Positions 3,253-59,900 of a stretch of DNA of 64,000 nt are shown here, one piece after another. Both the position numbers and the translations under genes were made by a program. How positions within the stretch are numbered: position 1 is the stretch's first letter; the number at the start of each line of letters is the position of its first letter. This DNA comes from Leucoraja erinacea (Eukaryota): assembly GCF_028641065.1 (NCBI RefSeq), contig NC_073377.1:108066001-108130000 (forward strand), in the 5' to 3' direction. Under the pieces are notes generated by a model. That model had not been told where the DNA came from. It worked only from the letters and a program-made list of their open reading frames with translations, and did no database searches.

Positions 3253-3527
3253 TTTAGTTTAGTTTAGTTTAGAGATACAGCGCGGAAACAGGCCCTTCGG
3301 CCCATCGAGTCCGCACTGGTCAGTGATCCCCGCATATTAACACTATCCTACGCATACTAGGGACAATTTACATTTATACCAAGCCAATTAACCCACAAAC
3401 CTGTATGTGTTTGGAGTGTGGAAGGAAACCGAAGAACTCGGAGAAAACCCAAGCTTTCATGGGGAGAACGTACAAACTCCGTACAGGCAGCACCCATAAT
3501 CAGGATTGAAATTGTGTCTCTGGTGCT
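3253..3527 (-). mobile_element. V-SINE (HE1/MER6-like)
   Basis: V-domain and (ACTAA)n tail on the minus strand; matches other copies in the window. Confidence 0.8.
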
Positions 3528-4017
3528 GCCTATATCCAGGAATGTTTTCTGAAGAAATATGTAAATTCTCCAACTACAGAAAGAGCTACAAAACCTCTTA
3601 GGGAGCACATGTGTCAGATGTGTCAGTGGCGGATGAGTAACCACAATTCTATCAGTTTTTAAATAGTTATGGAGAAAGTTAGACTGGTTCACCAATATGG
3701 GCAAGGTGATTTTTGATGGCATTAAACCGGGACTTGCAAAGGTGATTTAAGAAGGGCTGCAAGGACAAAGCAAGGAACCAGTAAACCTTACAGAAGTGTG
3801 GGAAAGTTTTTGGAGATGAAACAGAATTTATTTGCTTTTGTAATGGCAAGAACCGAATATGGTTTGTCAGCTTGGCTTTGTGTGGAAAATCGTGTCTCAT
3901 GAATTTGAATGAGTTTTAGAACAGGTGACAAAGAGGATTGACAGGGGCAAGGCACAGACTTTACCAAGGCCTTTGCAAGGTTCTGCATGGTTTGCTGGTC
4001 CAGAAGGTTAGAACATG

Positions 4018-5201
4018 TGAAGGCTTTCGACAAGGTCCCACATAAGAGATTAGAATACAAACTTAAAGCACACGGCATTGGGGGTTCAGTATTGATGTGG
4101 ATAGAGAACTGGCTGGCAAACAGGAAGCAAAGAGTAGGAGTAAACGGGTCCTTTTCACAATGGCAGGCAGTGACTAGTGGGGTACCACAAGGCTCAGTGC
4201 TGGGACCCCAGCTATTTACAATATATATTAATGATCTGGATGAGGGAATTGAAGGCAATATCTCCAAGTTTGCGGATGACACTAAGCTGGGGGGCAGTGT
4301 TAGCTGTGAGGAGGATGCTAGGAGACTGCAAGGTGACTTGGATAGGCTGAGTGAGTAGGCAAATGTTTGGCAGATGCAGTACAATGTGGATAAATGTGAG
4401 GTTATCCACTTTGGTGGCAAAAACAGGAAAGCAGACTGTTATCTAAATGGTGGCCGATTAGGAAAAGGGGAGATGCAACGAGACCTTGGTGTCATGGTAC
4501 ACCAGTCATTGAAAGTAGGCATGCAAGTGCAGCAGGCAGTGAAGAAAGCAAATTGTATGTTAGCTTTCATAGCAAAAGGATGTGAGTATAGGAGCAGGGA
4601 GGTTCTACTGCAGTTGTACAGGGTCTTGGTGAGGCCACACCTGGAGTATTGCGTACAGCTTTGGTTTCCAAATCTGAGGAAGGACATTATTGCCATAGAG
4701 GGAGTGCAGAGAAGGTTCTTGATTCCTGGGATGTCAGGACTTTCATATGAAGAAAGACTGGATAGACTCAGCTTATATTCGTTAGAATTTAGGAGATTGA
4801 GGGGGGATCTTATAGAAATGTACAAAATTCTTAAGGGGTTGGACAGGCTAGATGCAGGAAGATTGTTCCCGATGTTGGGGAAGTCCAGGACAAGGGGTCA
4901 CAGCTTAAGGATAAGGGGGAAATCCTTTAAGACCGAGATGAGAAAAACATTTTTCACACAGAGAGTGGTGAATCTCTGGAACTCTCTGCCACAGAGGGTA
5001 GTTGAGGCCAGTTCATTGGCTATATTTAAGAGGGAGTTAGATGTGGCCCTTGTGGCTAAAGGGATCAGGGGGTATGGAGAGAAGGCAGGTACGGGATACT
5101 GAGTTGGATGATCAGCCATGATCATATTGAATGGCGGTGCAGGCTCAAAGGGCCAAATGGCCTACTGCTGCACCTATTTTCTATGTATCTATATATCTAT
5201 G
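4018..5201 (+). mobile_element. Young CR1 3' fragment (RT C-terminus, 3'UTR, ctatgt tail)
   Basis: KAFDKVPH...[10 protein letters not shown]...FADD...; nearly identical to 10580-11762; premature TAG at 4356-4358. Confidence 0.95.
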
Positions 5202-7002: not shown

Positions 7003-7925
7003 CATAGAAACATAGAAAATAGGTGCAAGAGTAGGCCATTCGGCCCTTCGAGCCTGCACCGCCATTCGATATGATCATGGCTGATCATCCAACTCAGTAT
7101 CCCATCCCTGCCTTCTCTCCATACCCCCTGATCCCTTTAGCCACAAGGGCCACATCTAACTCCCTCTTAAATATAGCCAATGAACTGGCCTCAACTACCT
7201 TCTGTGGCAGAGAATTCCACAGATTCACCACTCTCTGTGTAAAGAATGATTTTCTCGTTGCATCTCCCCTTTTCCTAATCAGCCACCATTTAGATAATAG
7301 TCTACTTTCCTGTTTTTGACATCAAAGTGGATAACCTCACATTTATCTACATTATACTGCATCTGCCATGCATTTGCCCACTCACCCAACCTATCCAAGT
7401 CACCTTGCAGCCTCCTAGCATCCTCCTCACAGCTAACACTGCCCCCCAGCTTTGTGTCATCCGCAAACTTGGAGATGTTGCATTCAATTCCCTCATCCAG
7501 ATCATTAATATATATTGTAAATAGCTGGGGTCCCAGCACTGAGCCACGCGGTAGCCCACTAGTCACTGCCTGCCATTCTGAAAGGACCCGTTTACTCCTA
7601 CTCTTTGCTTCCTGTCTGCCAGTCAGTTCTCTATGCACATCAATACTGAACCCCCAATACCGTGTGCTTTAAGTTTGTATACTAATCTCTTATGTGGGAC
7701 CTTGTCGAAAGCCTTCTGAAAGTCCAGATATAACACATCCACTGGTTCTTCCTTATTCACTCTACTAGTTACATCCTCGAAAAATTCTATAAGATTCGTC
7801 AGACATGATTTACCTTTCATAAATCCATGCTGACTTTGTCCAATGAATTCACCACTTTCCAAATGTGCTGCTATCCCATCTTTAATAACTGACTCCAGAA
7901 TTTTCCCCACCACCGATGTTAGACT
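7003..7925 (-). mobile_element. CR1 3' part (host element, continues at 11765-12555)
   Basis: Reverse complement of CR1 RT and 3'UTR; internal deletion near 7257. Confidence 0.93.
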
Positions 7926-10900
7926 GTAGACACGTACAGTGAGTTGGTCACACCGCAGGTAAAAGGTAAGAGGACGGAAGGGGAACGGGTGGCCAATAGT
8001 CAGCAAAGCAGTAGGCAGGTAGTGCAGGAGTCCCCTGCGGTCATCTCCCTCCTAAACAGGTATACCATTTTGGAAACTGTTGAGGGAGATTGCTCATCAG
8101 GGGAATGCAGCAGCAGCCAAGTTCATGGCACCATGGGTGGCTCTGCGGCACATGAGGGGGGGAAAAAGAGTGGAAGGGCAATAGTAATAGGGGATTCAAT
8201 TGTCAGGGGAATAGATAGGCGTTTCTGCCGCCGCAAAAGAGACTCCAGGATGGTATGTTGCCTCCCTGGTGCAAGGGTCAGGGATGTCACTGAACGGCTG
8301 CAGAACATTCTGGAGGGGGAGGGTGAACAGCCAGTTGTCGTGGTGCATATTGGCACCAACGATATAGGTAAAAAAAGGGATGAGGTCCTAAAGGATGAAT
8401 TTAGGGAGCTAGGAGATAAGCTTAAAAGTAGGACCTCAAAGGTAATAATCTCTGGATTACTACCAGTACCACGGGCCAGTCAGAGCAGAAATAGGAGGAT
8501 ATTGCAGATGAATACGTGGCTTGAAAAATGGTGCAAGGGGGAGGGATTCAAATTTTTAGGGCATTGGAACCAGTTCTGGGGGAGGTGGGACCAGTACAAA
8601 CAGGACGGTCTGCACCTGGGCTGGAATGGAACCAATGTCCTTGGGGGGGTGTTTGCTACTGCTGTCGGGGAGGATTTAAACTAATGTGGCAGGGGGATGG
8701 GTACAAGAGCAGAGGGGCAGGGGGGTGTAAAATGAAGGTAGAAGCAATAGGTAGCAAGGTGAAAAGTAAAAGTGGCAGGCAGACAAAACCAGGGCAAAAA
8801 TCAAAAAGGGCCACTTTTCAACATAATTGTATAAGGGGTAAGAGCGTTGTAAAAACAAGCCTGAAGGCTTTGTGTCTCAATGCAAGGAGTATTCGTAATA
8901 AGGTGGATGAGTTGAACGTGCAGATAGCCATTAATGATTATGATATAGTTGGGATCACGGAGACATGGCTCCAGGGTGACCAAGGCTGGGAGCTGAACAT
9001 CCCGGGATATTCAATATTCAGGAGGGATAGAGAGAAAGGAAAAGGAGGTGGGGTAGTGTTGCTGGTTAGAGAGGAGATTAACGCAATGGAAAGGAAGGAC
9101 ATTAGTTTGGAGGATGTGGAATCTGTATGGGTAGAGCTGCGAAACAATAAGGGGCAGAAAACGCTGGTGGGTGTTGTGTACAGGCCACCTAACAGTAGTA
9201 GTGAAGTTGGGGATGGCATCAAACAGGAAATTAGAAATGCTTGCGACAAAGGCAAAGCAGTTATAATGGGTGACTTCAATCTACATATAGATTGGGTGAA
9301 TCAAACTGGCAGGGGTGCTGAGGAAGAGGATTTCTTGGAATGTATACGGGATAGTTATCTAAACCAACATGTAGAGGAACCAACGAGAGAGCTGGCTATT
9401 TTAGACTGGGTATTGAGTAATGAGGAAGGGTTAGTTAGTAGTCTTGTTGTGCGTGGCCCCTTGGGCAAGAGTGACCATAATATGGTTGAGTTCTTCATTA
9501 GGATGGAGAGTGACATTGTTAATTCAGAAACAATGGTTTTGAACTTAAAGAAAGGTAACTTTGAGGGTATGAGACGTGAATTGGCCAAGATTGACTGGCA
9601 ATTAATTCTAAAAGGGTTGACGGTGGATATGCAATGGAAGGCATTTAAAGACTGCATGGATGAACTACAAAAATTGTTCATCCCAGTTTGGCAAAAGAAT
9701 AAATCAGGGAAGGTAGTGCATCCATGGATAACAAGGGAAATCAGGGATAGTATCAAAGCAAAGGATGATGCGTACAAACTAGCCAGAAAAAGCAGCATAC
9801 CGGAGGACTGGGAGAAATTCAGAGACCAGCAGAGGAGGACGAAGGGCTTAATTAGAAAAGGAAAAATGGATTATGAAAGAAAACTGGCAGTGAACATAAA
9901 ATCTGACTGCAAAAGTTTTTATAGATATGTGAAAAGAAAGAGATTAGTTAAAACAAATGTAGGTCCCTTGCAGTCAGAAACAGGTGAGTTGATCATGGGG
10001 AACCAGGATATGGCGGACCAATTGAATAACTACTTTGGTTCCGTCTTCACTAAGGAAGACATAAATGATCTGCCGGAAATAGCAGGGGCCCGCGGGTCAA
10101 AGGAGGTGGAGGAATTGAGTGAAATCCAGGTTAGTCGGGAAGTGGTGTTGGGTAAATTGAATGGATTAAAGGCCGATAAATCCCCAGGGCCAGATAGGCT
10201 GCATCCCAGAGTACTTAAGGAAGTAGCTCCAGAAATAGTGGATGCATTAGTAATAATCTTTCAAAACTCCTTAGATTCTGGAGTAGTTCCAGAGGATTGG
10301 CGGGTAGCAAACGTAACCCCACTTTTTAAGAAGGGAGGGAGAGAGAAAACGGGGAATTACAGACCAGTTAGCCTAACATCGGTAGTGGGGAAACTGCTAG
10401 AGTCAGTTATTAAAGATGGGATAGCAGCACATTTAGAAAGTGGTGAAATCATTGGACAAAGTCAGCATGGATTTACGAAAGGTAAATCATGTCTGACGAA
10501 TCTTATAGAATTTTTCGAGGATGTAACTAGTAGTAGCGTGGATAGGGGAGAACCAGTGGATGTGGTGTATCTGGACTTCCAGAAGGCTTTCGACAAGGTC
10601 CCACATAAGAGATTAGTATACAAACTTAAAGCACATGGCATTGGGGGTTCAGTATTGATGTGGATAGAGAACTGGCTGGCAAACAGGAAGCAAAGAGTAG
10701 GAGTAAAACGGGTCCTTTTCACAATGGCAGGCAGTGACTAGTGGGGTACAGCAAGGCTCAGTACTGGGACCCCAGCTATTTACAATATATATTAATGATC
10801 TGGATGAGGGAATTGAAGGCAATATCTCCAAGTTTGCGGATGACACTAAGCTGGGGGGCAGTGTTAGGTGTGAGGAGGATGCTAGGAGACTGCAAGGTGA

Positions 10901-11762
10901 CTTGGATAGGCTGGGTGAGTGGGCAAATGTTTGGCAGATGCAGTTTAATGTGGATAAATGTGAGGTTATCCATTTTGGTGGCAAAAACGGGAAAGCAGAT
11001 TATTATCTAAACGGTGGCCGATTGGGAAAGGGGGAGATGCAGCGAGACCTGGGTGTCATGGTACACCAGTCATTGAAGGTAGGCATGCAGGTGCAGCAGG
11101 CAGTAAAGAAAGCGAATGGCATGTTGGCTTTCATAGCAAGAGGATTTGAGTATAGGAGCAGGGAGGTTCTACTGCAGTTGTATAGGGTCTTGGTGAGACC
11201 ACACCTGGAGTATTGCGTGCAGTTTTGGTCTCCAAATCTGAGGAAGGACATTATTGCCATAGAGGGAGTGCAGAGAAGGTTCACCAGACTGATTCCTGGG
11301 ATGTCAGGACTGTCTTATGAAGAAAGACTGGATAGACTTGGTTTATACTCTCTAGAGTTTAGGAGATTGAGAGGGGATCTTATAGAAACTTACAAAATTC
11401 TTAAGGGGTTGGACAGGCTAGATGCAGGAAGATTGTTTCCGATGTTGGGGAAGTCCAGGACAAGGGGTTACAGCTTAAGGATAAGGGGGAAATCCTTTAA
11501 AACCGAGATGAGGAGAACTTTTTTCACACAGAGAGTGGTGAATCTCTGGAACTCTCTGCCACAGAGGGTAGTTGAGGCCAGTTCATTGGCTATATTTAAG
11601 AGGGAGTTAGATGTGGCCCTTGTGGCCAAGGGGATCAGAGGGTATGGAGAAAAGGCAGGTACGGGATACTGAGTTGGATGATCAGCCATGATCATATTAA
11701 ATGGCGGTGCAGGCTCGAAGGGCCGAATGGCCTACTCCTGCACCTAATTTCTATGTTTCTTT
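7926..11762 (+). mobile_element. 5'-truncated young CR1 LINE: ORF1 SGNH-esterase part (to 8684) and ORF2 APE+RT (8684-11672, one +1 frameshift near 10705)
   Basis: ORF1 GDSIVRG/HIGTND/DGLHL; ORF2 GITETW, GDFN, SDH, QHGF, FADD; ttctatgt tail. Confidence 0.97.
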
Positions 11763-11764
11763 GT

Positions 11765-12555
11765 TTCCCCGTTTTCTCTCTCCCTCCCTTTTTAAAAAGT
11801 GGGGTTACATTAGCTACCCTCCAGTCCTCAGGAACTACTCCAGAATCTAAAGAGTTTTGAAAAATGATCACTAATGCATCCACTATTTCTGCGGCTACTT
11901 CCTTAAGTACTCTGGGATGCAACTTATCTGGCCCTGGGGATTTATCGGCCTTTAATCCATTCAATTTACTTAACACCACTTTCTGGCTAACCTGGATTTC
12001 ACTCAGTTCCTCCATCTCATTTAACTCCCGGTCCCTTGCTATTTCCGGCAAATTATTTATGTCTTCCTTAGTGAAGACAGAACCAAAGTAGTTATTCAAT
12101 TGGTCTGCCATGTCCTTGTTCCCCATGATCAATTTGCCTGTTTCTGACTGCAAGGGACCTACATTTGTTTTAACTAATCTTTTCCTCTTCACATATCCAT
12201 AAAAAACATTTGCAGTCAGTTTTTATGTTCCCTGCCAGTTTTCTTTCATAATCTATATCCCCTTTCCTAATTAAGCCTTTTGTCCTCCTCTGCTGGACTG
12301 AATTTCTCCCAGTCCTCTGGTAGGCTGCTTTTTCTGGCTAATTTGTACGCTTCGCCTTTTGTCGATACTATTCCTGATTTCCCTTGTTATCCACAGATGC
12401 ACCACCTTCCCTGATTTATTCTTTTGCCAAACTGGGATGAACAATTGTTGTAGATCAACCATGCAGTTTTTAAATGCCTTCCATTGCATATCCACCGTCA
12501 ACCCTTTAAGAATCATTTGCCAGTCTATCTTGGTCAATTCACGTCTCATACCCTC
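11765..12555 (-). mobile_element. CR1 ORF2 mid-section (upstream half of the 7003-7925 host element)
   Basis: KTNVGPLQSETG...VTPLFKKGGREKTG; collinear with 7003-7925. Confidence 0.92.
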
Positions 12556-25500: not shown

Positions 25501-25978
25501 TTTATGTTGCATACTATTTGTTTAAAATCACATTAAATATTATGATCAATGCAAATAGACGGAAAATTAAAGTCAGATATAATCCCTTAATTATGTCCAA
25601 ATCTGTATAATTTTTAAAACCATTTATCAATAATGCTAGTTTTGGAGTATCTACCTAGTGTCATAATACTTGTTGTATAAAGTGGGAAAATCAAATTCAA
25701 AATAGTCAAAGGTTTCTAGTTGCCAATGCTAGTTCCCATTGGTGTTTTACTATTGCTTTTCTATGCTTCTGCTTCAGATAGTCTCTTTTTGCCTTTCTAG
25801 CTTGCCAATCTTGAGATCAGTCAAGTAGCACATTACAAAACATAGAAATCATAAAGCCACAACACAAACTCTCACAAGACCACATGAACAACCACAAAAA
25901 CTTTAACCGAATGAACTGCAAAGCTAACTACAAATTCTGCAGCGCAATAGCACAATGAATCCAGTAGATGGCTGGTAC

Positions 25979-28900
25979 CTTCAAAATGATCATGGCCATT
26001 TTCTTCAGGAATTCTTTCAATTTGGGTTTCAACAGATTCGTCCCAGATTGGCCTCACATCAAACAGGTCTTCTGGAAGAGGCTGGTGTACTTCACTGGGC
26101 TGCTCAGTTTCTATAATAGAACTATCTACAGCACTGCTATCATCATCTGATAACACTTCATGTTCTCGCTCTTCCTCTGTCAAACGATCCACCAACTTTG
26201 AAGCCTCATCACTTATTTCTTCAAAAAATTCAATTGAATGTTTATAAAGTTCTAAAAATGTATCTTTGCTGCCCTTAGTATAACCAGTAGCAGCTTGTGA
26301 ACTATAACTAGATTTGGTCTTCACTGGAAGTCTTGATTGGAATGATTTTGGTTTATTACTTTCAGATGTTTCTGATCCAATGAAAAATTGGGACACAGGT
26401 TCTTTTGCATCAGGTTCGGTATCACAGCTCTTCCCCTTATTAAGAAGTTTACTTCTCATCTCAGCAGAATTACTGGCATCTGACTCAGACTTGCTCCGTG
26501 GTTCCTGTCTTACTGGCAACCTAGATTTAACCTCATGGATTTTAATGGTCTCTGAAGTCTTTTTCATGTCTGGTAACATTGGTGACGAATGGTGGTCTAT
26601 TCTGTGTGCAACGGCCTTAACAGGAATTCTAGATTTTGATTTTACTACATCATCTGTAGATCCTTCCTGAACACTGGCAGAAGATGAAGATGCCTTATCT
26701 ACGGGTGCAGTTGGTACACGAGGAATTGCAGTTACAACTGCAGTATGTCTGACAGGTAACTTTGATTTTGCCTCTGTCTGGTAGGTTTGTTGAATAATTG
26801 CAGTAGGAATTTCAATAACTGAACGTTGCTCTTCAGGTGATGAGTCTGATGAATCATCGTCACTCCTAACAGCCTGTTGTGAAGATATTGTCACTGTAGA
26901 AAAGTCCAACTGGACATTATTCGCAGATGCCTTGGGAGCAACAATATCTACTTCATCATTTAAGATGAAAGGTTTTACTTCAGCCACTTCAGGTGCTGCA
27001 GTGTCTTTTTTTGAAGATTTGGCAGATGCAGAAATGCCCATTTTGATTGGAATTCTCGATTTTTGCTCATTTTTTGTGGCTATTTGTTCATCAGTGCAAC
27101 TAAACTCAATAGGGGATTGAAGAGCTGCATCAATAGTGGGTGGTGAATCTGACATTGAAGCAGATTGAATCTCAGTCTGAGAAAGGTTGAGTACTCCATC
27201 AGTCACGCTCTCAGTTTCAAGAGACTTCACCTCATCCTCACTTCCTTCCATTTTTGACGCTTCAATTAAAGCCTCAGCATCCTGATCTTCTCCAATTTGG
27301 AAAAAATGGAAGCCGTCATCTCCATAGCTCCTTTTGCTCATATCAATGGCACCACTTCTGGTCATTTCAAACAATTTTCCCTCTTGAAATAGGAATGGGT
27401 TTTGTTCATTGGTTGGTGTACCATCCTCAATCGGAGTTCTTGCTGGTGTGGTATCAGGAGTTGTACCACGAGATTGTCTGTCAACCATTAGGCCAAATAT
27501 TTTCTGCTCTTCCTCTTTAAGACGAGCTGCAAATACGTCATCATCTTCTCTGATTGTATTCCAAGCATCAAGCTCCGGCTTTGTCTCAGTTATTATTATT
27601 TCGCTACGCTGTTCCTCAGCTACTTTTTTTGAATGCATGTCACTTAATGCAGATTCGTCAGCAGGAGCTGCTTTATATTCCACACAGTCAATTACAGGTG
27701 ATGAAGATTTTTCGATCATTCCATCCTGGCCCTCATGCCTCTGGTCATGTGCTTTTGCTTGATATTCTTCAGATCTGCTATCGACCCACAGTTCATCTCG
27801 CTTTTCTGCAGCTTGCTCAAGACGCTGTACATCTTCCTCAGTAAGAATATCTTCCTCTTGCAGCTCAGGCACAAAAGCTGGTGCTTCTGAAGAAACTGGC
27901 TCTTCAATAGACTCACCAGTGGCTGTAAAAGAATGAACTGCAGAGGAATGATGAGTTTCAACATTGTCACAAGGCACTGCTTCAGAAACCTGTGAATCAA
28001 TTGAAACACCGCAATCTTTGTCCACGCTTCTGTTTTCTACTGTTATGCCACTATCACCTGTTTGTTCACTTGATTCTTTCTCGTGATCTATTATCTTAAA
28101 GGTGTAGTTTTTGTCCGGTATGGGAGGAAATTCTGCATCCTCAGGACTAGAAACAGGGAGGAGTGGAGAAGGAGGCTTAACTCGAATAACTGGTTCCATG
28201 AGCAGTCCACTTTCAGCCTCTTTGCTTAGTTGAGTTAGTTCTGGCTCACTTTCTGAAGAAGAGGAGCTCATTCTATGCTCGGCATGAGATATAACTATAA
28301 CTTCTGCATCTTCTACATTGGATATAGCAGGGGTTGACGACATATCACAATACTTCTGCTCCTTTTTACCATCACGTTTTAATCTAGCATCCTCCTCTAG
28401 TTCATCAAATGTTTTGATCTTGGCTGCCATTTTAAACATCTCCTCTTCTGGTGTAAATCTTTTCTTTGATTCACTGTCTGGAGGGGAATCATCATCAATT
28501 TCCTCTTGGATTTCTGGAATCACAATTGGCTTGTCAGCAACTGAGAGTATATGCGTGTCAGGTGTTTTAGGTGTGACTTCATAACTGATCTCCTCAGAGC
28601 TCGGAGTTTCAGGTGAAAGAGGGCTCTTTCCTGAACTTTCCATTTGAGACACTTGGTCCAAACTATCTTCCTCTGTGCTCCCATCAGGTGACATAAGCTT
28701 CCTTGCTTCTCTGCTTATGGGTCCTTCTCCTCGCATTTCTCTGAGAATTCTACTCCTGGCTGATGTAGAATCCAAAGAAATATCAGTTTTGTCACTTTTT
28801 TTCTCAGTGATCACGATAGGAGCCACTTTTTCACTCTTCAGTGCCATGGAGATTGCTGTACTTAACCTTTGCTCCACTGGGCTACTTTCGAGAGAATCTG

Positions 28901-31567
28901 GACATGGAGATTCTTTTAAGGGGCTTGGCTCCAGTGAATCTGGGGATTTGTGTGAAGTTGTATCAATATCATCCTGTGTGGGACTACCCTCCAGAGAATC
29001 CTTATGGCTGATCAAAGATTCATCTGCCATTGGACTAAGATTATCAGTATCAAGTGAAACTCCGGTGAGACACAAATCCAATAGTTGACTTCTTGGTGTG
29101 GCCTCTGGTGAAATGGAAGTTACAACTGGTGAAGCATTTTTTTGATCAGTTTCCTTCACTGCAGTATCTGGGGCTAATAACGCTCCTGGTTTTCCATCCG
29201 ACATTGACACACAAATGCTTCTCTCCTTGCCTTTGAATCCACTCTCCAAAGAATCATCATGCCCATCATGAAGGAACAAAGATTCTGATTCCTCCTGCAT
29301 AAAAGCATCTTTTTCACTGGTATCATCTGTAGCTTTAAGGGCAGAGACAGATTCACTTGTGCTCTGCTCATCTACTTCATCTACGAGAGATGTGGCTTGA
29401 GTTATTTCTGTCAATTGCAATTCATCATAATCAACACAACCCGAATCTGCAGTTAGTTCTGCATCAGTGGCATCTAAATATTCCTTTGTTACCTTTAAGT
29501 CAGAAATTTCTTCAGTTGAGATTACATTTTCATACTGTGCAGAAGGTGTGCTTTTCTGAAAACTTTGGTCCTCGTTGTCTATTTTGACAGGATCTCCAGC
29601 ATCTTGCTTTTCTGACGTTTCCTGATCATTTTTCTTTGGTGAGAGGGAGAGACTTTCAGGGCTCGTCTCAGGAGTTTCTGCAAGACCTTCATGTTTATAG
29701 CTCTCCTCTGAGCTGATTTGAGGAGTACCATCACCTAAGCTAAAGCTCGGAGAGTCGGCAATGCCTTCATGCTTTAGGCTTTCTGAACTGTCATCAAGGG
29801 CACCATTTTGTAATGTTACATCTGGTGTAAATCCATTTTTCACATACTGTGGTGGAAAACTAATGTTCAGGTGATGATGAACTGGGCTTGTCACTACCTG
29901 TTCAAGGTAAAGTTCAGCATCTGGAGTATCTGAGGTTTTCCTAAATTGTTGATATTTGTCGTTATCTTCTAATTCCGCTTTAATGACATCAGTGAAATCA
30001 GTGGATGTCTTCCTGTCTGGACTGATCTGTAAATCGCTAGTCACAGTAATTCTGCTGCTGTGTATCTCAGTTTGCTTCTCATGATCTTCGGCAAAAACTG
30101 ACTCAAAGTTTTCTGATGTTTCAGAACTTGCATCACCTCTTTCAATTGTGAGTACCTTCTTATCTTTGCTTGATGGTATTCTTTTCCTTTCCCTACTAAT
30201 TTCCCTCGTGCCTTGTGTTACTGAACTAATTGCAGCTATTCCATTCTGATCTATACGCAATGTATCCTGTGAAAGCCCTTGTGGCTTGAACTTTCCTACA
30301 TCATCTGCTTTTGCTTCTATGAGTACATCATGAGACACTTCTGGTTTTGTTAATTCTTCTAAAGTTTGCTTTTCTGCTTGTGAAGCATCAGATGCATGTT
30401 GGAAGAGTCGAGTCATCTTCTTGGATGGATCTTGTCCTGACTGAAATGCTTTCATCAGTTCACGCACTGACATTGTTTCTTCAAGCCTTTCTGTAACAGC
30501 GGAAGTAGGAGCCTCTGTGCATGATACTCGTTTAGTAACCGGTATGCAAATCTCTTCCTTCACTGCTGATTTTACTTGTTTTCGTTGTCCTTCCTCTGCC
30601 TCCACACGCTTCTGGAGAGCTTTGACTTTCTCTTTTATTGAACCAATGGGAGTTTCTTCTACCACAGGTGAGGTAGATTCTGCAATGGTTGGAGGCACTA
30701 ATGTTATTTCTTCCTTGGTGGAATCAGATTCAGTGTAAATATTCTGCTGTACTTTTTTAAGCTCCATTGTTGATTCTTTCGTTTGGGATTGAAATGCAGG
30801 ATCCTTAAAATACACTGCGGTATTTTCTGCCTTGAATCTCTGAAACACTGGCTTTGTCTTTCCCATATCAAGTTTACTTTGGTCTTTTGCTTTGTGCAAT
30901 TCCTCTTGTTCACTGAGCTCCTCAGATCTTGAAGGTTTGTAAATCATCTGATCAGTTCCTTTTTTAATATCTTTGGTAATGAATGTTGCTTCAAAACTTT
31001 CTTGGACGATATTCATTTGACAAGTGGCTGGAGGTCCTGTCGCTACTTCCTTTAAATATGTGTCCAGGTCATTTTCTAAATAGCCCAACATTCCATTCAT
31101 ATCTTTCACAACCTTTTCTCGGGGCCCTCTGTCAATTCTGTGCTCCACAAACAAAGATTCAGTGACCTCTGCTGGTACTTCTCGTTTGACTTCATCAATT
31201 TCTTCGTCGCTGATAATTACCCAGCTTTCTTCGAGTTCTTCACCAAAGGCCTCTTGTAGAGATTCGTCACCCGTGTATGTTCCGCTTCTTAAAATCTGAC
31301 TCACTTTTTCCAAGTCTTCTTTCACTTTCCCTACAATTTCAAAAGGCTCACCTGGTTCATCTTCAGTTCCTTTTGCTAATTCTTTCACCTCTATTGGGCT
31401 TCCTTTACTTCCTGATGTTTTTAAGATCTTAGTGACCTTGATCAAGTCTTGTTTCATGTCAGATACATCTGAAAGCAAGTCTGGGCTGGCCAGCACAGGA
31501 ACATCATGGACAAGATGGGATTTTATGGCTGAAGAAATCTCAGCAGATTCAGTCTCCTCCTCTTCAT
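25979..31567 (-). CDS. ANK2: ANK2 giant neuronal exon (5589 nt, 1863 codons, phase 1-1; 440-kDa-type ankyrin-B)
   Basis: Lies within the 1952-aa ORF. AnkB-diagnostic blocks: VPVLASPDLLSDVSDMKQDLIK, EETPIGSIKEKVKALQKRVE, EETMSVRELMKAFQSGQDPSK, KLFEMTRSGAIDMSKR, ENGHDH. Donor gaag|gtacc at 25978; acceptor cgaag|atgaag gives an in-frame join. Confidence 0.96.
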
Positions 31568-34500
31568 CTTCGTTTTGACAGAAATGTTTCAATTTAAAAC
31601 AAAAATGGGTCAAGAAAGAAATTGGAAAATGTGATTTGGGTGACACAATACAGATTCTGAAGGGATGGGTCAAAGTAAGAGATGGATTGAATGGCAGATG
31701 GATATCCACAAGGTCTGCAGGTGGGTACAATTGCGAAGCAAAGCCAACTCAAAATTGGGAAGTAACAGGCAGGAAATAACTTGCTTTATTTTCACCAGAA
31801 CACATCCACACCACTTACAACACCAAAGCAATAACAAATCGAATCGAAACCAAGACACCAACAAACTGAAATAAATAGGAGCAGTGCATTCGCACAGAGA
31901 TAGGAATCTCAAGATTGTTTAGATGTAACAGATTCACGTCTAAAGAAAAAAAGATCAGAAACCACAGATAACTGATTTCCTCTTAAAGAAAGCCAGTACT
32001 AGCAAACTGTCAGAACAACATTTGTTGTCTTCTATTTCAAAAATAAATTTTAAACAAAAGCTTACTTTTTTAGGAACTAGAACTAAAAAAACACATTGAA
32101 CATCATATTATTTAAACCAGCTGCAAACCGGCAAAGAATCTCAAATCTAAATGCACATAGTATAAAGAAAAAGCTACTGAAATGAAGTGAGATCCTTTCC
32201 TTGGAACATCCTAGTTGTTCTGACAACTAAACAAAAAAAAAACCTTTGCAAATACGAAAACACAAATTAAGAAGAAGGGCAAACCAAACGAGGATCTACT
32301 GAAAGAGATCAAAAATATAACCAGTGGATGAAGTCAGAAAACAAAATATGGTGGATAGAGCAAAATTAAAAATTTGCAACACTCACACACACAGAACGCT
32401 TAAGCCAAGTTATTTCCATGCAAAACTAGAGTTCTGACAGCATGAGGCATGCAGCCATATGTAAGCACTAATTAACATAGACATTTTGCTTTAGTTAGGT
32501 GGCATTGTGGTGAAGTACAGTGGTTGATGTAGGTTACTTAAAAGCAGGAAAGACTTTTCCTAGAATGGCATATTTGTTCAAACATAACAATAATATCCAG
32601 CATTAAATAGTTTCCACTTTTAAGGAAAGAACATTTCATCGGCTATCTAAACAGTTTTCAAATTTAAATAAAATTTACGATCATTTTGTGTTTTATTGTT
32701 ATGTTCTGAAATAGGCACTGGGTTATTCAGTTATAATTCAATGTTAGCCAATAATTTTGTGTTCAAAATATCTGAGCTAAATGGTGGCAAGATCTTTATT
32801 ACATTTCATTTTATGGGCAGCATTTTCTTTTCCTCAGCTCGCACCTCAATATAACAAATAATAACCACTAAAATGACTAAAGAAAGAGGAGCAATGTAAT
32901 GTAGCAAACTCTTCTCAATTATCCAATACAATTTTTCAACTTTGCTCATTCAATTTTTATACATCTATGTGCAATATATTCCAATGGAGATGCCAACAAA
33001 TGGAAATAAAATAATTTGTATTATTTATAGTTTATAGAGATGTGAATTGGTGTATACAGTAAAAATCCTGTTTGAAAATCAACATCTATGGTATGTGTAT
33101 TGCTCATTTAACTCCACACCAAAATATAATGTCATCCGCTTTATCCAGTTTACCTTTGTTAAACATAGAACACAAAGCATAGTACAGGACAGGAACAAGT
33201 CCTTCAGCCTACAATGTCTAGTCCCTGCTGACAGCACTTCTTCTTCTTGCGTATGGCGTGCACAGCAAGTTGGACAACTTGTTCTATTTGATTGTGCACG
33301 CCGGGTTGATTGCATTCGTCGAAATAGGGCGGACCACGTGAAGGTTGCAATCTCCCACCCCTAACAGCACTTGATCCATTTTCATCATATCCATATCCCT
33401 CTCTAAATAGCCCCTATTGTTTCTGCTTCCACCACCACCCCTGGCAGCATATCCCAGGCACTCGCAACTCTCTGTGTAAATAAACTTGCTCCACATCAAT
33501 CTTTTCCCCATCACCTTAAAGCTATGCCCTCTAATATTTCAATCCTGGTAGAAAAGATTCCGAAACCCTTCTGATAATTTATAAACTTCCTCAGTCTCCA
33601 AAGCTCCAGAGAAAATATCTTCAATATGTCCAACCTCTCTTTATAGCTAATACCCTCCAAGGTTGTAGGTTAATTGGCTTCAGTAAGAATTGTAAATTGT
33701 CCCTCAGTGAGCTGAAGGGCCTGTTTCCACGCTGCATCTCTAAGCTAAACTATCCAACTTTTTAGCATGGTTCTATTAAAGAACAATCTTACACATTGTA
33801 GCACAATCTTACACGCCCTCAATGCTAGTTAGTGTTAAATATCCTACAGAGTGACCAGGACAGGTTACAGACCATTGGCAACCTCAAGAAACTTTGGAAT
33901 CGTATTAGTCAATGTCATTCTCTATATAATTGCAAGATTAGTATAAATCATTATTGAAGTCATACACTGAACAGGATAGTTTTCCACGCAAATAAATGTG
34001 GAAAGCTGTTTTTGTATGGATTTTGGAAAACACTACACATGTGTAAAACTGTAATGATTAAAATGCAATGAATACATTTGATAGTATGACACATTACAAA
34101 TTTATCACCAGCAATATCCACAAACAAAATAATTCATAAATTATTGTTAGGTATTGTTATTTCATTTTTGGGTTTAATCTTTGGTACAAAAGTCTGAACT
34201 GTACTTCACCACAGTATTTGCCATTCTGATGTAGGAGCATTTTAAAAATCGTATGGACAAAATGTCAAGTGTGACATGGAGCAGGCATGCTCTCCGCTCT
34301 TCAAGGAGCATGAAATTTAACAAGATAAATATGAAAAATAGAAATAATTTAATGATAATGCCACAGGCACCAGCAGGACCATAAGGGATGTTAAAGGAAA
34401 GTGGATGCTTAAATGATCATTTAGTTATTAATCTATATGAATTTAGTTTAACACTAGTAAACTATTAATCAAGTTAACAATTATTAAACATAATTACTGT

Positions 34501-59192: not shown

Positions 59193-59900
59193 TCTATATT
59201 ACTAAAAGTCTGATCTTGACCACTTCCTGTTGTTCTGTATATTGATTTTAGAAAAAACTATACTACTCACGGATGTGATTTTCTGTCATCTTACTCGGAG
59301 ACCCCCTCCGCTGCGCAGGACAAGAGGATTTTCCCCATTGATTAAAAATAAAAGAGCTATTAGTGTTTAAAAAATGTTGAGATTATCTCTCGTAAAACCC
59401 GGAAGTGCTGAGGGCCTCAGTCCATCTCTGCAAGATGGGGGAGCGAGAGGGTCACATCTCTCAGTCTGAGCTGTGAATAACACTGCACACATGTCTACTA
59501 AACTGTGAGTGGTTTTACTGACCTGTCAGTGCCCTTAATGTGGTTTGAAAATATAGTTTGGAAATGCTAAAGCTGTGTTGCCTTTGGTTTGGAAGTGCTA
59601 GAGCTGTGTTGCCTTTGGATTGGAAATGCTAAAGCTGTGTTGCCTTTGGTTTGGAAATGTTAAAGCTGTGTTGCCTAATTAAAGTTGGCTTGCCTAATTA
59701 AAGTTGTCTTGCCTAATTAAAGTTGGCTTGCCTAATTAAAGTTGTCTTGCCTAATTAAAGTTGGCTTGCCTAATTAAAGTTGGCTTGCCTAATTAAAGTT
59801 GGCTTGCCTTCTATATAATTAAAAGTCTCATCTTGACCATTTCCTGTTTGCGCTTTATATTGATTTTAGAAAAACGCCACCACGTACAGCTGTGGAAATT
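59193..59900 (+). mobile_element. Helitron-like non-autonomous element with duplicated 5' terminus and minisatellites
   Basis: A|TCTATATTACTAAAAG start, repeated at 59810; 3' CTRR end not seen. Confidence 0.5.
59560..59809. repeat. 31-bp x ~3.7 and 19-bp x 7 tandem repeats
   Basis: ggaaatgctaaagctgtgttgcctttggttt; ttgcctaattaaagttggc. Confidence 0.95.

Follow-up and report, generated by a model that had tools for sequence, protein, structure and literature searches.

A giant ankyrin-B exon of the skate Leucoraja erinacea in which a short spacer precedes an intact BG-box, the likely ancestral vertebrate state at the site of the mammalian repeat array

The ANK2 giant exon and its locus

The window analysed here is a stretch of 64,000 nucleotides from Leucoraja erinacea (NCBI RefSeq assembly GCF_028641065.1, contig NC_073377.1, positions 108,066,001 to 108,130,000 of the forward strand), and it bears on its minus strand the giant (neurospecific) exon of ANK2 (25979..31567). 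This exon of 5589 nt, i.e., 1863 codons, is in phase 1 at both ends, is bounded by an AG acceptor (31567) and a GT donor (25979), and lies within an open frame spanning 25872..31748 on the same strand. Its translation is present letter for letter in three full-length database proteins, and the database gene models include it, a point of annotation rather than of measurement. Over 1868 aa, the exon shares 97.8% identity with ankyrin-2 of Amblyraja radiata, and nine flanking pieces spread across the window match the same protein with their order kept (residues 1168-1498 upstream and 3380-3580 downstream of the exon). The organization is that of a giant ankyrin exon, namely a single multi-kilobase coding exon preceded by the spectrin-binding region and followed by the death domain.

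The exon DNA is present as a single copy in the genome. In a tree built from 27 local regions, the window falls inside chondrichthyan ANK2 (99/100) and apart from an ANK3 clade (100/99) that is anchored by named ANK3 proteins from rat, Lacerta, and Amia. The one paralog in the skate genome, an ANK3 giant exon on a different contig (C15:38941500-38951400; 2626-aa open frame), falls inside this latter clade (100/99), and contains a 40-aa spacer at the site considered below, a BG-box, and five SxIP-like motifs. The identity to the named ankyrin-2, the tree, and the separate ANK3-type locus establish that the window gene is ANK2 rather than ANK3, as had been recognized from the sequence alone. One raw RNA run, from another organism and sampled to about 6 in 100 of its content, yielded 0 reads on the stretch, a result that carries no weight for or against transcription.

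The introns in the window contain frames with endonuclease- and reverse transcriptase-like retrotransposon ORFs (876-1397, 4359-5102, 7923-11672, and 11692-12222), which are presumably of the CR1/LINE type; a near full-length copy at ~7900-11700 is split among several frames. At window positions 59556-59809, two minisatellites lie side by side in an intron (31 bp x3.9 and 19 bp x7.9, 92-94% identity).

The skate spacer and the BG-box

The microtubule-binding motif of mammalian giant ankyrin-B (440 kDa) has been described as bipartite, being made up of 15 repeats of 12 aa each plus a BG-box, in a region characterized as disordered (Chen et al., 2020; PMC7401806). According to the accessible part of that paper, the BG-box by itself binds microtubules and bundles them very weakly, bundling increases with the number of repeats, and binding is abolished by mutation of positions 3, 5, and 9 of the unit but not of positions 11-12 (PMC7401806). 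In the skate exon, the upstream anchor KVKALQKRVE (30600..30629, minus strand; read from the exon translation) and the downstream anchor TERLEETMSVREL (30494..30456, minus strand) are separated by exactly 35 residues (30599..30495), in agreement with the "about 35" on which the sequence-only reading had based its claim that the array is absent. The interval it had given, 30485-30620, marks the right site but overlaps slightly with both anchors, the spacer proper being 30495..30599. This non-repetitive spacer on the minus strand lies where mammals have the 12-aa array, has a net charge of +1, and terminates in a degenerate stretch with proline but without the lysine found at position 9 of the repeat unit.

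The accompanying statement that there is no tandem repeat anywhere in the exon also held when examined by three approaches, viz., TRF, protein self-similarity, and a 12-mer profile, none of which detected a tandem 12-aa array. TRF (minimum score 30) run on the whole exon returned two trivial two-copy matches alone (13 bp x2.0 at 26317 and 9 bp x2.2 at 29984). The self-similarity of the exon protein is at the level of chance, with a best value of 13/48 matches against a mean of 11.3 and a maximum of 15 in 100 shuffles; the hyena protein attains 29 at lag 12. Likewise, a profile built from 71 therian units (median score of the training units 32.8 bits) peaks at -1.0 bits in the exon, which is no better than chance (100 shuffles gave a mean best of -1.1). 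A search of PDB sequences found no structure for the array or the BG-box; a match to CsoR (E 0.52) in the same search was treated as chance.

What serves as the downstream anchor is in fact the BG-box (34 aa; 30393..30494, minus strand), the other half of the microtubule-binding motif, and in the skate it is intact. It is 28/34 identical to the hyena and rabbit versions and 29/34 to those of opossum and platypus; across five mammals the range is 27-29/34, with 24-25 of the first 25 residues identical and differences at 4-5 of the last 9 positions. Some microtubule-binding sequence therefore remains in the exon, a point missed by the sequence-only reading, which was otherwise right on the ANK2 identity, the absent array, and the contribution of that absence to exon length.

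Other motifs in the exon

Closer to the N-terminus, a conserved block (31278..31499, minus strand) matches the ankyrin-2 chain of PDB 6KZJ (E 1e-22), which we take to be the Ndel1-binding segment, and a second block (31158..31235, minus strand) matches the ankyrin-2 peptide of PDB 5YIR (E 0.007), presumably the GABARAP-binding LIR. A further element (30834..30863, minus strand), with the sequence GKTKPVFQRF, is the diverged counterpart of the ASAP1-SH3-binding motif, which reads IKKPVRRK in most bony vertebrates. The available text on this ligand motif gives its consensus as hydrophobic-[K/R]-K-P-x-R-[K/R] and calls it highly conserved in vertebrates (PMC11490884). We find the consensus in 52/56 bony-vertebrate ANK2 rows, the misses being three birds and one anole, and in none of 16 chondrichthyans and the single hagfish; all three birds checked deviate from it at one position.

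The tail of the exon (26325..27059, minus strand) contains five SxIP-like motifs (SRIP, SKLP, SRIP, SRLP, and SRLP), which are predicted EB-protein sites and are five in number in all 16 cartilaginous fishes. Giant ankyrin-G is reported, in the part of the source available, to couple to microtubules via SxIP motifs and EB proteins (PMC6839619), and by analogy the skate motifs may provide an indirect microtubule link through EB proteins. A further SxIP-like motif, SKLP(V/I), occurs just before the array site in 35/35 amniote rows and 0/38 non-amniote ANK2 rows, at a position homologous to window 30570-30599, where the spacer begins. Beyond the spacer, the remainder of the exon (25979-30494, minus strand) comprises 1475-1505 residues in skates and most rays and 1532-1565 in sharks and the chimaera, and is thus ~50-80 residues shorter in the former.

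Spacer lengths across vertebrates

For comparison, we used a panel of 78 rows chosen from 423 proteins, mostly one per species, which included the window and three ANK3 proteins; tuatara, crocodilian, lamprey, and human proteins were absent among the named matches listed. Spacer length and charge were measured on the ANK2 rows with an anchor match, the 6/75 without one being five teleosts and Xenopus laevis L, and profile and lag scoring covered all but 5/78 rows (Scleropages, Xenopus laevis L, Anolis carolinensis, Erythrolamprus, and rat ANK3). Some lineages have duplicated blocks beside the array site rather than the unit: the upstream anchor block is repeated about five times in Xenopus and is also repeated in Scleropages, and some teleost-like proteins show 3-4 BG-box-like matches.

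The spacer is of 32-37 residues in 16/16 cartilaginous fishes, i.e., the window and 15 named skates, rays, sharks, and a chimaera. It measures 33 residues in hagfish, 39-40 in non-teleost ray-finned fishes (8 rows), 39-44 in the four measurable teleosts, 38 in coelacanth and lungfish, 39-41 in amphibians (7 rows), 46 in turtles (4 rows), and 47 in birds (3 rows), and the ANK3 spacers are of comparable size (40 in the skate, 39 in a lizard and in bowfin). Long spacers are confined in the panel to squamates (124-159; 21 rows), monotremes (124; 2 rows), and therians (179-220; 6 rows). In the full set, which is isoform-rich and rank-biased, both anchors are found in 378/423 proteins, with 335 having a spacer of 60 residues or less and 43 a longer one, these being 27 squamate, 7 monotreme, 8 therian, and 1 snake-like proteins. 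The comparison that the sequence-only reading had proposed, across sharks, skates, chimaera, gar, coelacanth, and tetrapods, thus places all cartilaginous fishes measured at 32-37 residues and gar and coelacanth at 38-40, and none of these chondrichthyans has an array at the site.

At the site of the single unit, amphibians, turtles, and birds reach 17.9-36.1 bits with the 12-mer profile, and the skate -2.5, with the proviso that the profile is ungapped and a shortened ancestral unit would score low by construction. No fish row exceeds 10.7 bits, and the 2/16 chondrichthyans above 10 bits, both Mobula, reach this value via a low-complexity stretch. The spacers of all 16 chondrichthyans are also devoid of P.S...[KR] motifs, i.e., of the combination of P3, S5, and K9. 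By these scores, not a single canonical unit is present in cartilaginous fishes, and the first appears in tetrapods; the PVSSTV-TER sequence of sharks may represent a shortened proto-unit.

That the array is missing outside mammals is already known, and the sequence-only reading had missed that its question is answered in the very paper behind its background statement: the accessible part of the paper states that the 15-repeat module is missing from non-mammals, which nonetheless preserve the BG-box, that the giant ankyrin-B of birds, amphibians, and fish has one such repeat only, and that monotremes are without the repeat module (PMC7401806). Sharks have 0 occurrences in that part of its text. 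The same source delimits the human giant segment as aa 1477-3561, i.e., 2085 residues (PMC7401806), which together with the 5589 nt measured here bears out the comparison of 1863 codons with ~2085 in human. The absent array was held to account for much of the shorter exon, and in the part of the panel covered by our decomposition of exon spans it explains ~73-75% of the difference to the three therians measured (166/225 residues for hyena, 153/203 for rabbit, and 185/254 for opossum).

Direction of change at the array site

We propose that the skate giant ankyrin-B exon, with its short spacer and intact BG-box, represents the likely ancestral vertebrate state that preceded the array, a reading to which we assign a probability of about 0.93. 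The short spacer is likely ancestral because every outgroup measured is short, and the polarity furnished by these outgroups points to gain rather than loss as the likely direction of change. The hagfish branch is long (2.18) and its orthology to ANK2 unsure; nonetheless, be it ANK2 or an outgroup, its sequence would support the short-first direction just the same. The sequence-only reading had left the choice between a later innovation and a loss in this lineage undecided, and the outgroups resolve it in favour of the former.

Repeat arrays can contract through unequal crossover, and this general process gives formal standing to the reverse scenario, in which the jawed-vertebrate ancestor already had the array and cartilaginous fishes later lost it. 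Chondrichthyans, ray-finned fishes, coelacanth, lungfish, amphibians, turtles, and birds would then each have to have lost it in parallel, and the spacers of hagfish and ANK3 are short too; these outgroups effectively refute loss, and we consider it highly improbable. A collapse of a tandem array during assembly of the skate genome is a separate concern, given that its absence in this individual is judged from contigs of relatives rather than from its own reads. Against such an artefact, 15/15 other named chondrichthyan proteins have 32-37 residues at the site, contigs of three related organisms span the spacer in one piece with substitutions alone and no gap, indel, or joint, the reading frame is uninterrupted, and no repeat remnant is seen in the spacer; the probability of a collapse is negligible. 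Judged through its relatives, the short skate spacer is neither a collapse nor a lineage-specific loss.

Starting from this ancestral short spacer, the sequence comparisons are compatible with a stepwise elaboration of the site. The first stage would be a short spacer followed by the BG-box, common to ANK3 and hagfish; next, tetrapods would have fixed one canonical unit (xPPVSPSSK-TER); finally, this unit would have been tandemly duplicated as a 12-mer in mammals, to 8 units in monotremes and up to 16 in marsupials, and, probably in a separate event, as a 9-mer in squamates. The skate protein would make a weak microtubule contact through its BG-box, and possibly also through EB proteins, and is predicted not to bundle microtubules like its mammalian counterpart, a prediction drawn from the fragment data in the available text of PMC7401806.

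Arrays in monotremes and squamates

Platypus and echidna ANK2 contain 8 twelve-residue units (lag 12, z 13-15), and 12 is the best lag in 8/8 mammals. The monotreme count contradicts the wording in the accessible part of PMC7401806, in that it is fewer than 15 and yet not none, and it suggests that the mammalian 12-mer expansion likely began before the monotreme-therian split.

In squamates, an array is present at the site homologous to window 30495-30599 in 21/21 rows (snakes, lizards, an amphisbaenian, and geckos), with 9 as the best lag in the 19/19 scored (z 7.3-12.8, from 300 shuffles). It is of the KPPVSPTTK type, with 5-8 SPxx[KR] units and an upstream block of related units, its unit spacings equal 9 in 110/119 cases, and its net charge is +20 to +27. 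A TER-type triplet follows 0/119 internal units in squamates as against 65/66 in mammals. Proline 3, the sole free test since the counting pattern itself requires serine 5 and lysine 9, is present in 59/140 squamate versus 51/61 therian units; its scarcity weakens the functional parallel with mammals.

Because the ends of the squamate and mammalian units differ, we favour two gains, and the squamate array is likely an expansion independent of the mammalian one. The fuller proposition, that a microtubule-binding array arose at the site on two occasions, built of 12-mers in mammals and of 9-mers in squamates, with the skate retaining the ground state, is offered tentatively, at slightly under even odds. 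By this account the squamate unit would keep the serine and lysine shown to matter and drop two dispensable end residues, and the array would attain a net charge equal to the mammalian one (+20 to +27 against +20 to +22). An array could instead have originated once in the amniote ancestor, with squamates remodelling it to 9-mers and turtles and birds losing it, and this would be as parsimonious, at one gain and one loss, as two gains on the array-free tree; the same core also lies behind both arrays. The duplicated segments, nevertheless, have different periods (lag 9 in 19/19 squamates and 12 in 8/8 mammals) and, by the distribution of the TER-type triplet, different ends, and turtles and birds match the one-unit state of amphibians. 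The local tree that includes the array does weakly join squamates and mammals (85/69), but a tree of 19 rows from which the array was left out places squamates with turtles and birds, the standard grouping (SH-aLRT 99), and we rejected the former grouping as an effect that likely stems from the arrays aligning together. On balance we regard the single amniote origin as unlikely.

Were two gains to be true, direct control of axon branching by giant ankyrin-B would have evolved convergently in mammals and in lizards and snakes, and fishes, amphibians, turtles, and birds would be without it. The squamate array, the 8 units of monotremes, and the unit-free cartilaginous fishes were not found in the literature searched, which mostly excluded subscription journals; Fig. 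S2A of PMC7401806, a paper accessible in part, may show some squamate or monotreme taxa.

The squamate array is a lead worth testing, and the absence of an array in the skate is ordinary by itself. As a cartilaginous-fish data point the skate is minor alone, and its import is in fixing the direction of the published pattern as gain; the wider comparison revises the published range, with monotremes having 8 units and squamates an array of their own. Nature thus offers a graded set with 0, 1, 8, or 15 units of twelve residues, along with a nine-residue variant, which can be used to test directly repeat number versus charge versus unit sequence as the driver of bundling and of branch suppression, in an isoform that is autism-linked.

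Comparison with known giant ankyrins

The skate exon is orthologous to the giant exon of mammalian ankyrin-B, with which it shares the same anchors, a BG-box with 27-29/34 identities, and N-terminal blocks matching 6KZJ and 5YIR. It differs from the mammalian version in having no repeat unit, in a spacer of 35 rather than 179-220 aa (therians) with a net charge of +1 rather than +20 to +22, in its diverged ASAP1 motif, and in the absence of the amniote SKLP(V/I) at the start of the spacer. The published non-mammalian giant ankyrin-B of birds, amphibians, and fish resembles that of the skate in its short spacer, intact BG-box, and lack of an array; however, one repeat is ascribed to it, whereas in our panel the canonical unit is seen only in tetrapods, the skate scoring -2.5 bits. 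Giant ankyrin-G (ANK3) is also akin to skate ANK2 in possessing a BG-box, a short spacer (39-40 aa), and several SxIP-like motifs in the exon tail, but it is a paralog in a distinct clade, encoded in the skate at the separate C15 locus, and the EB sites of skate ANK2 are predicted ones.
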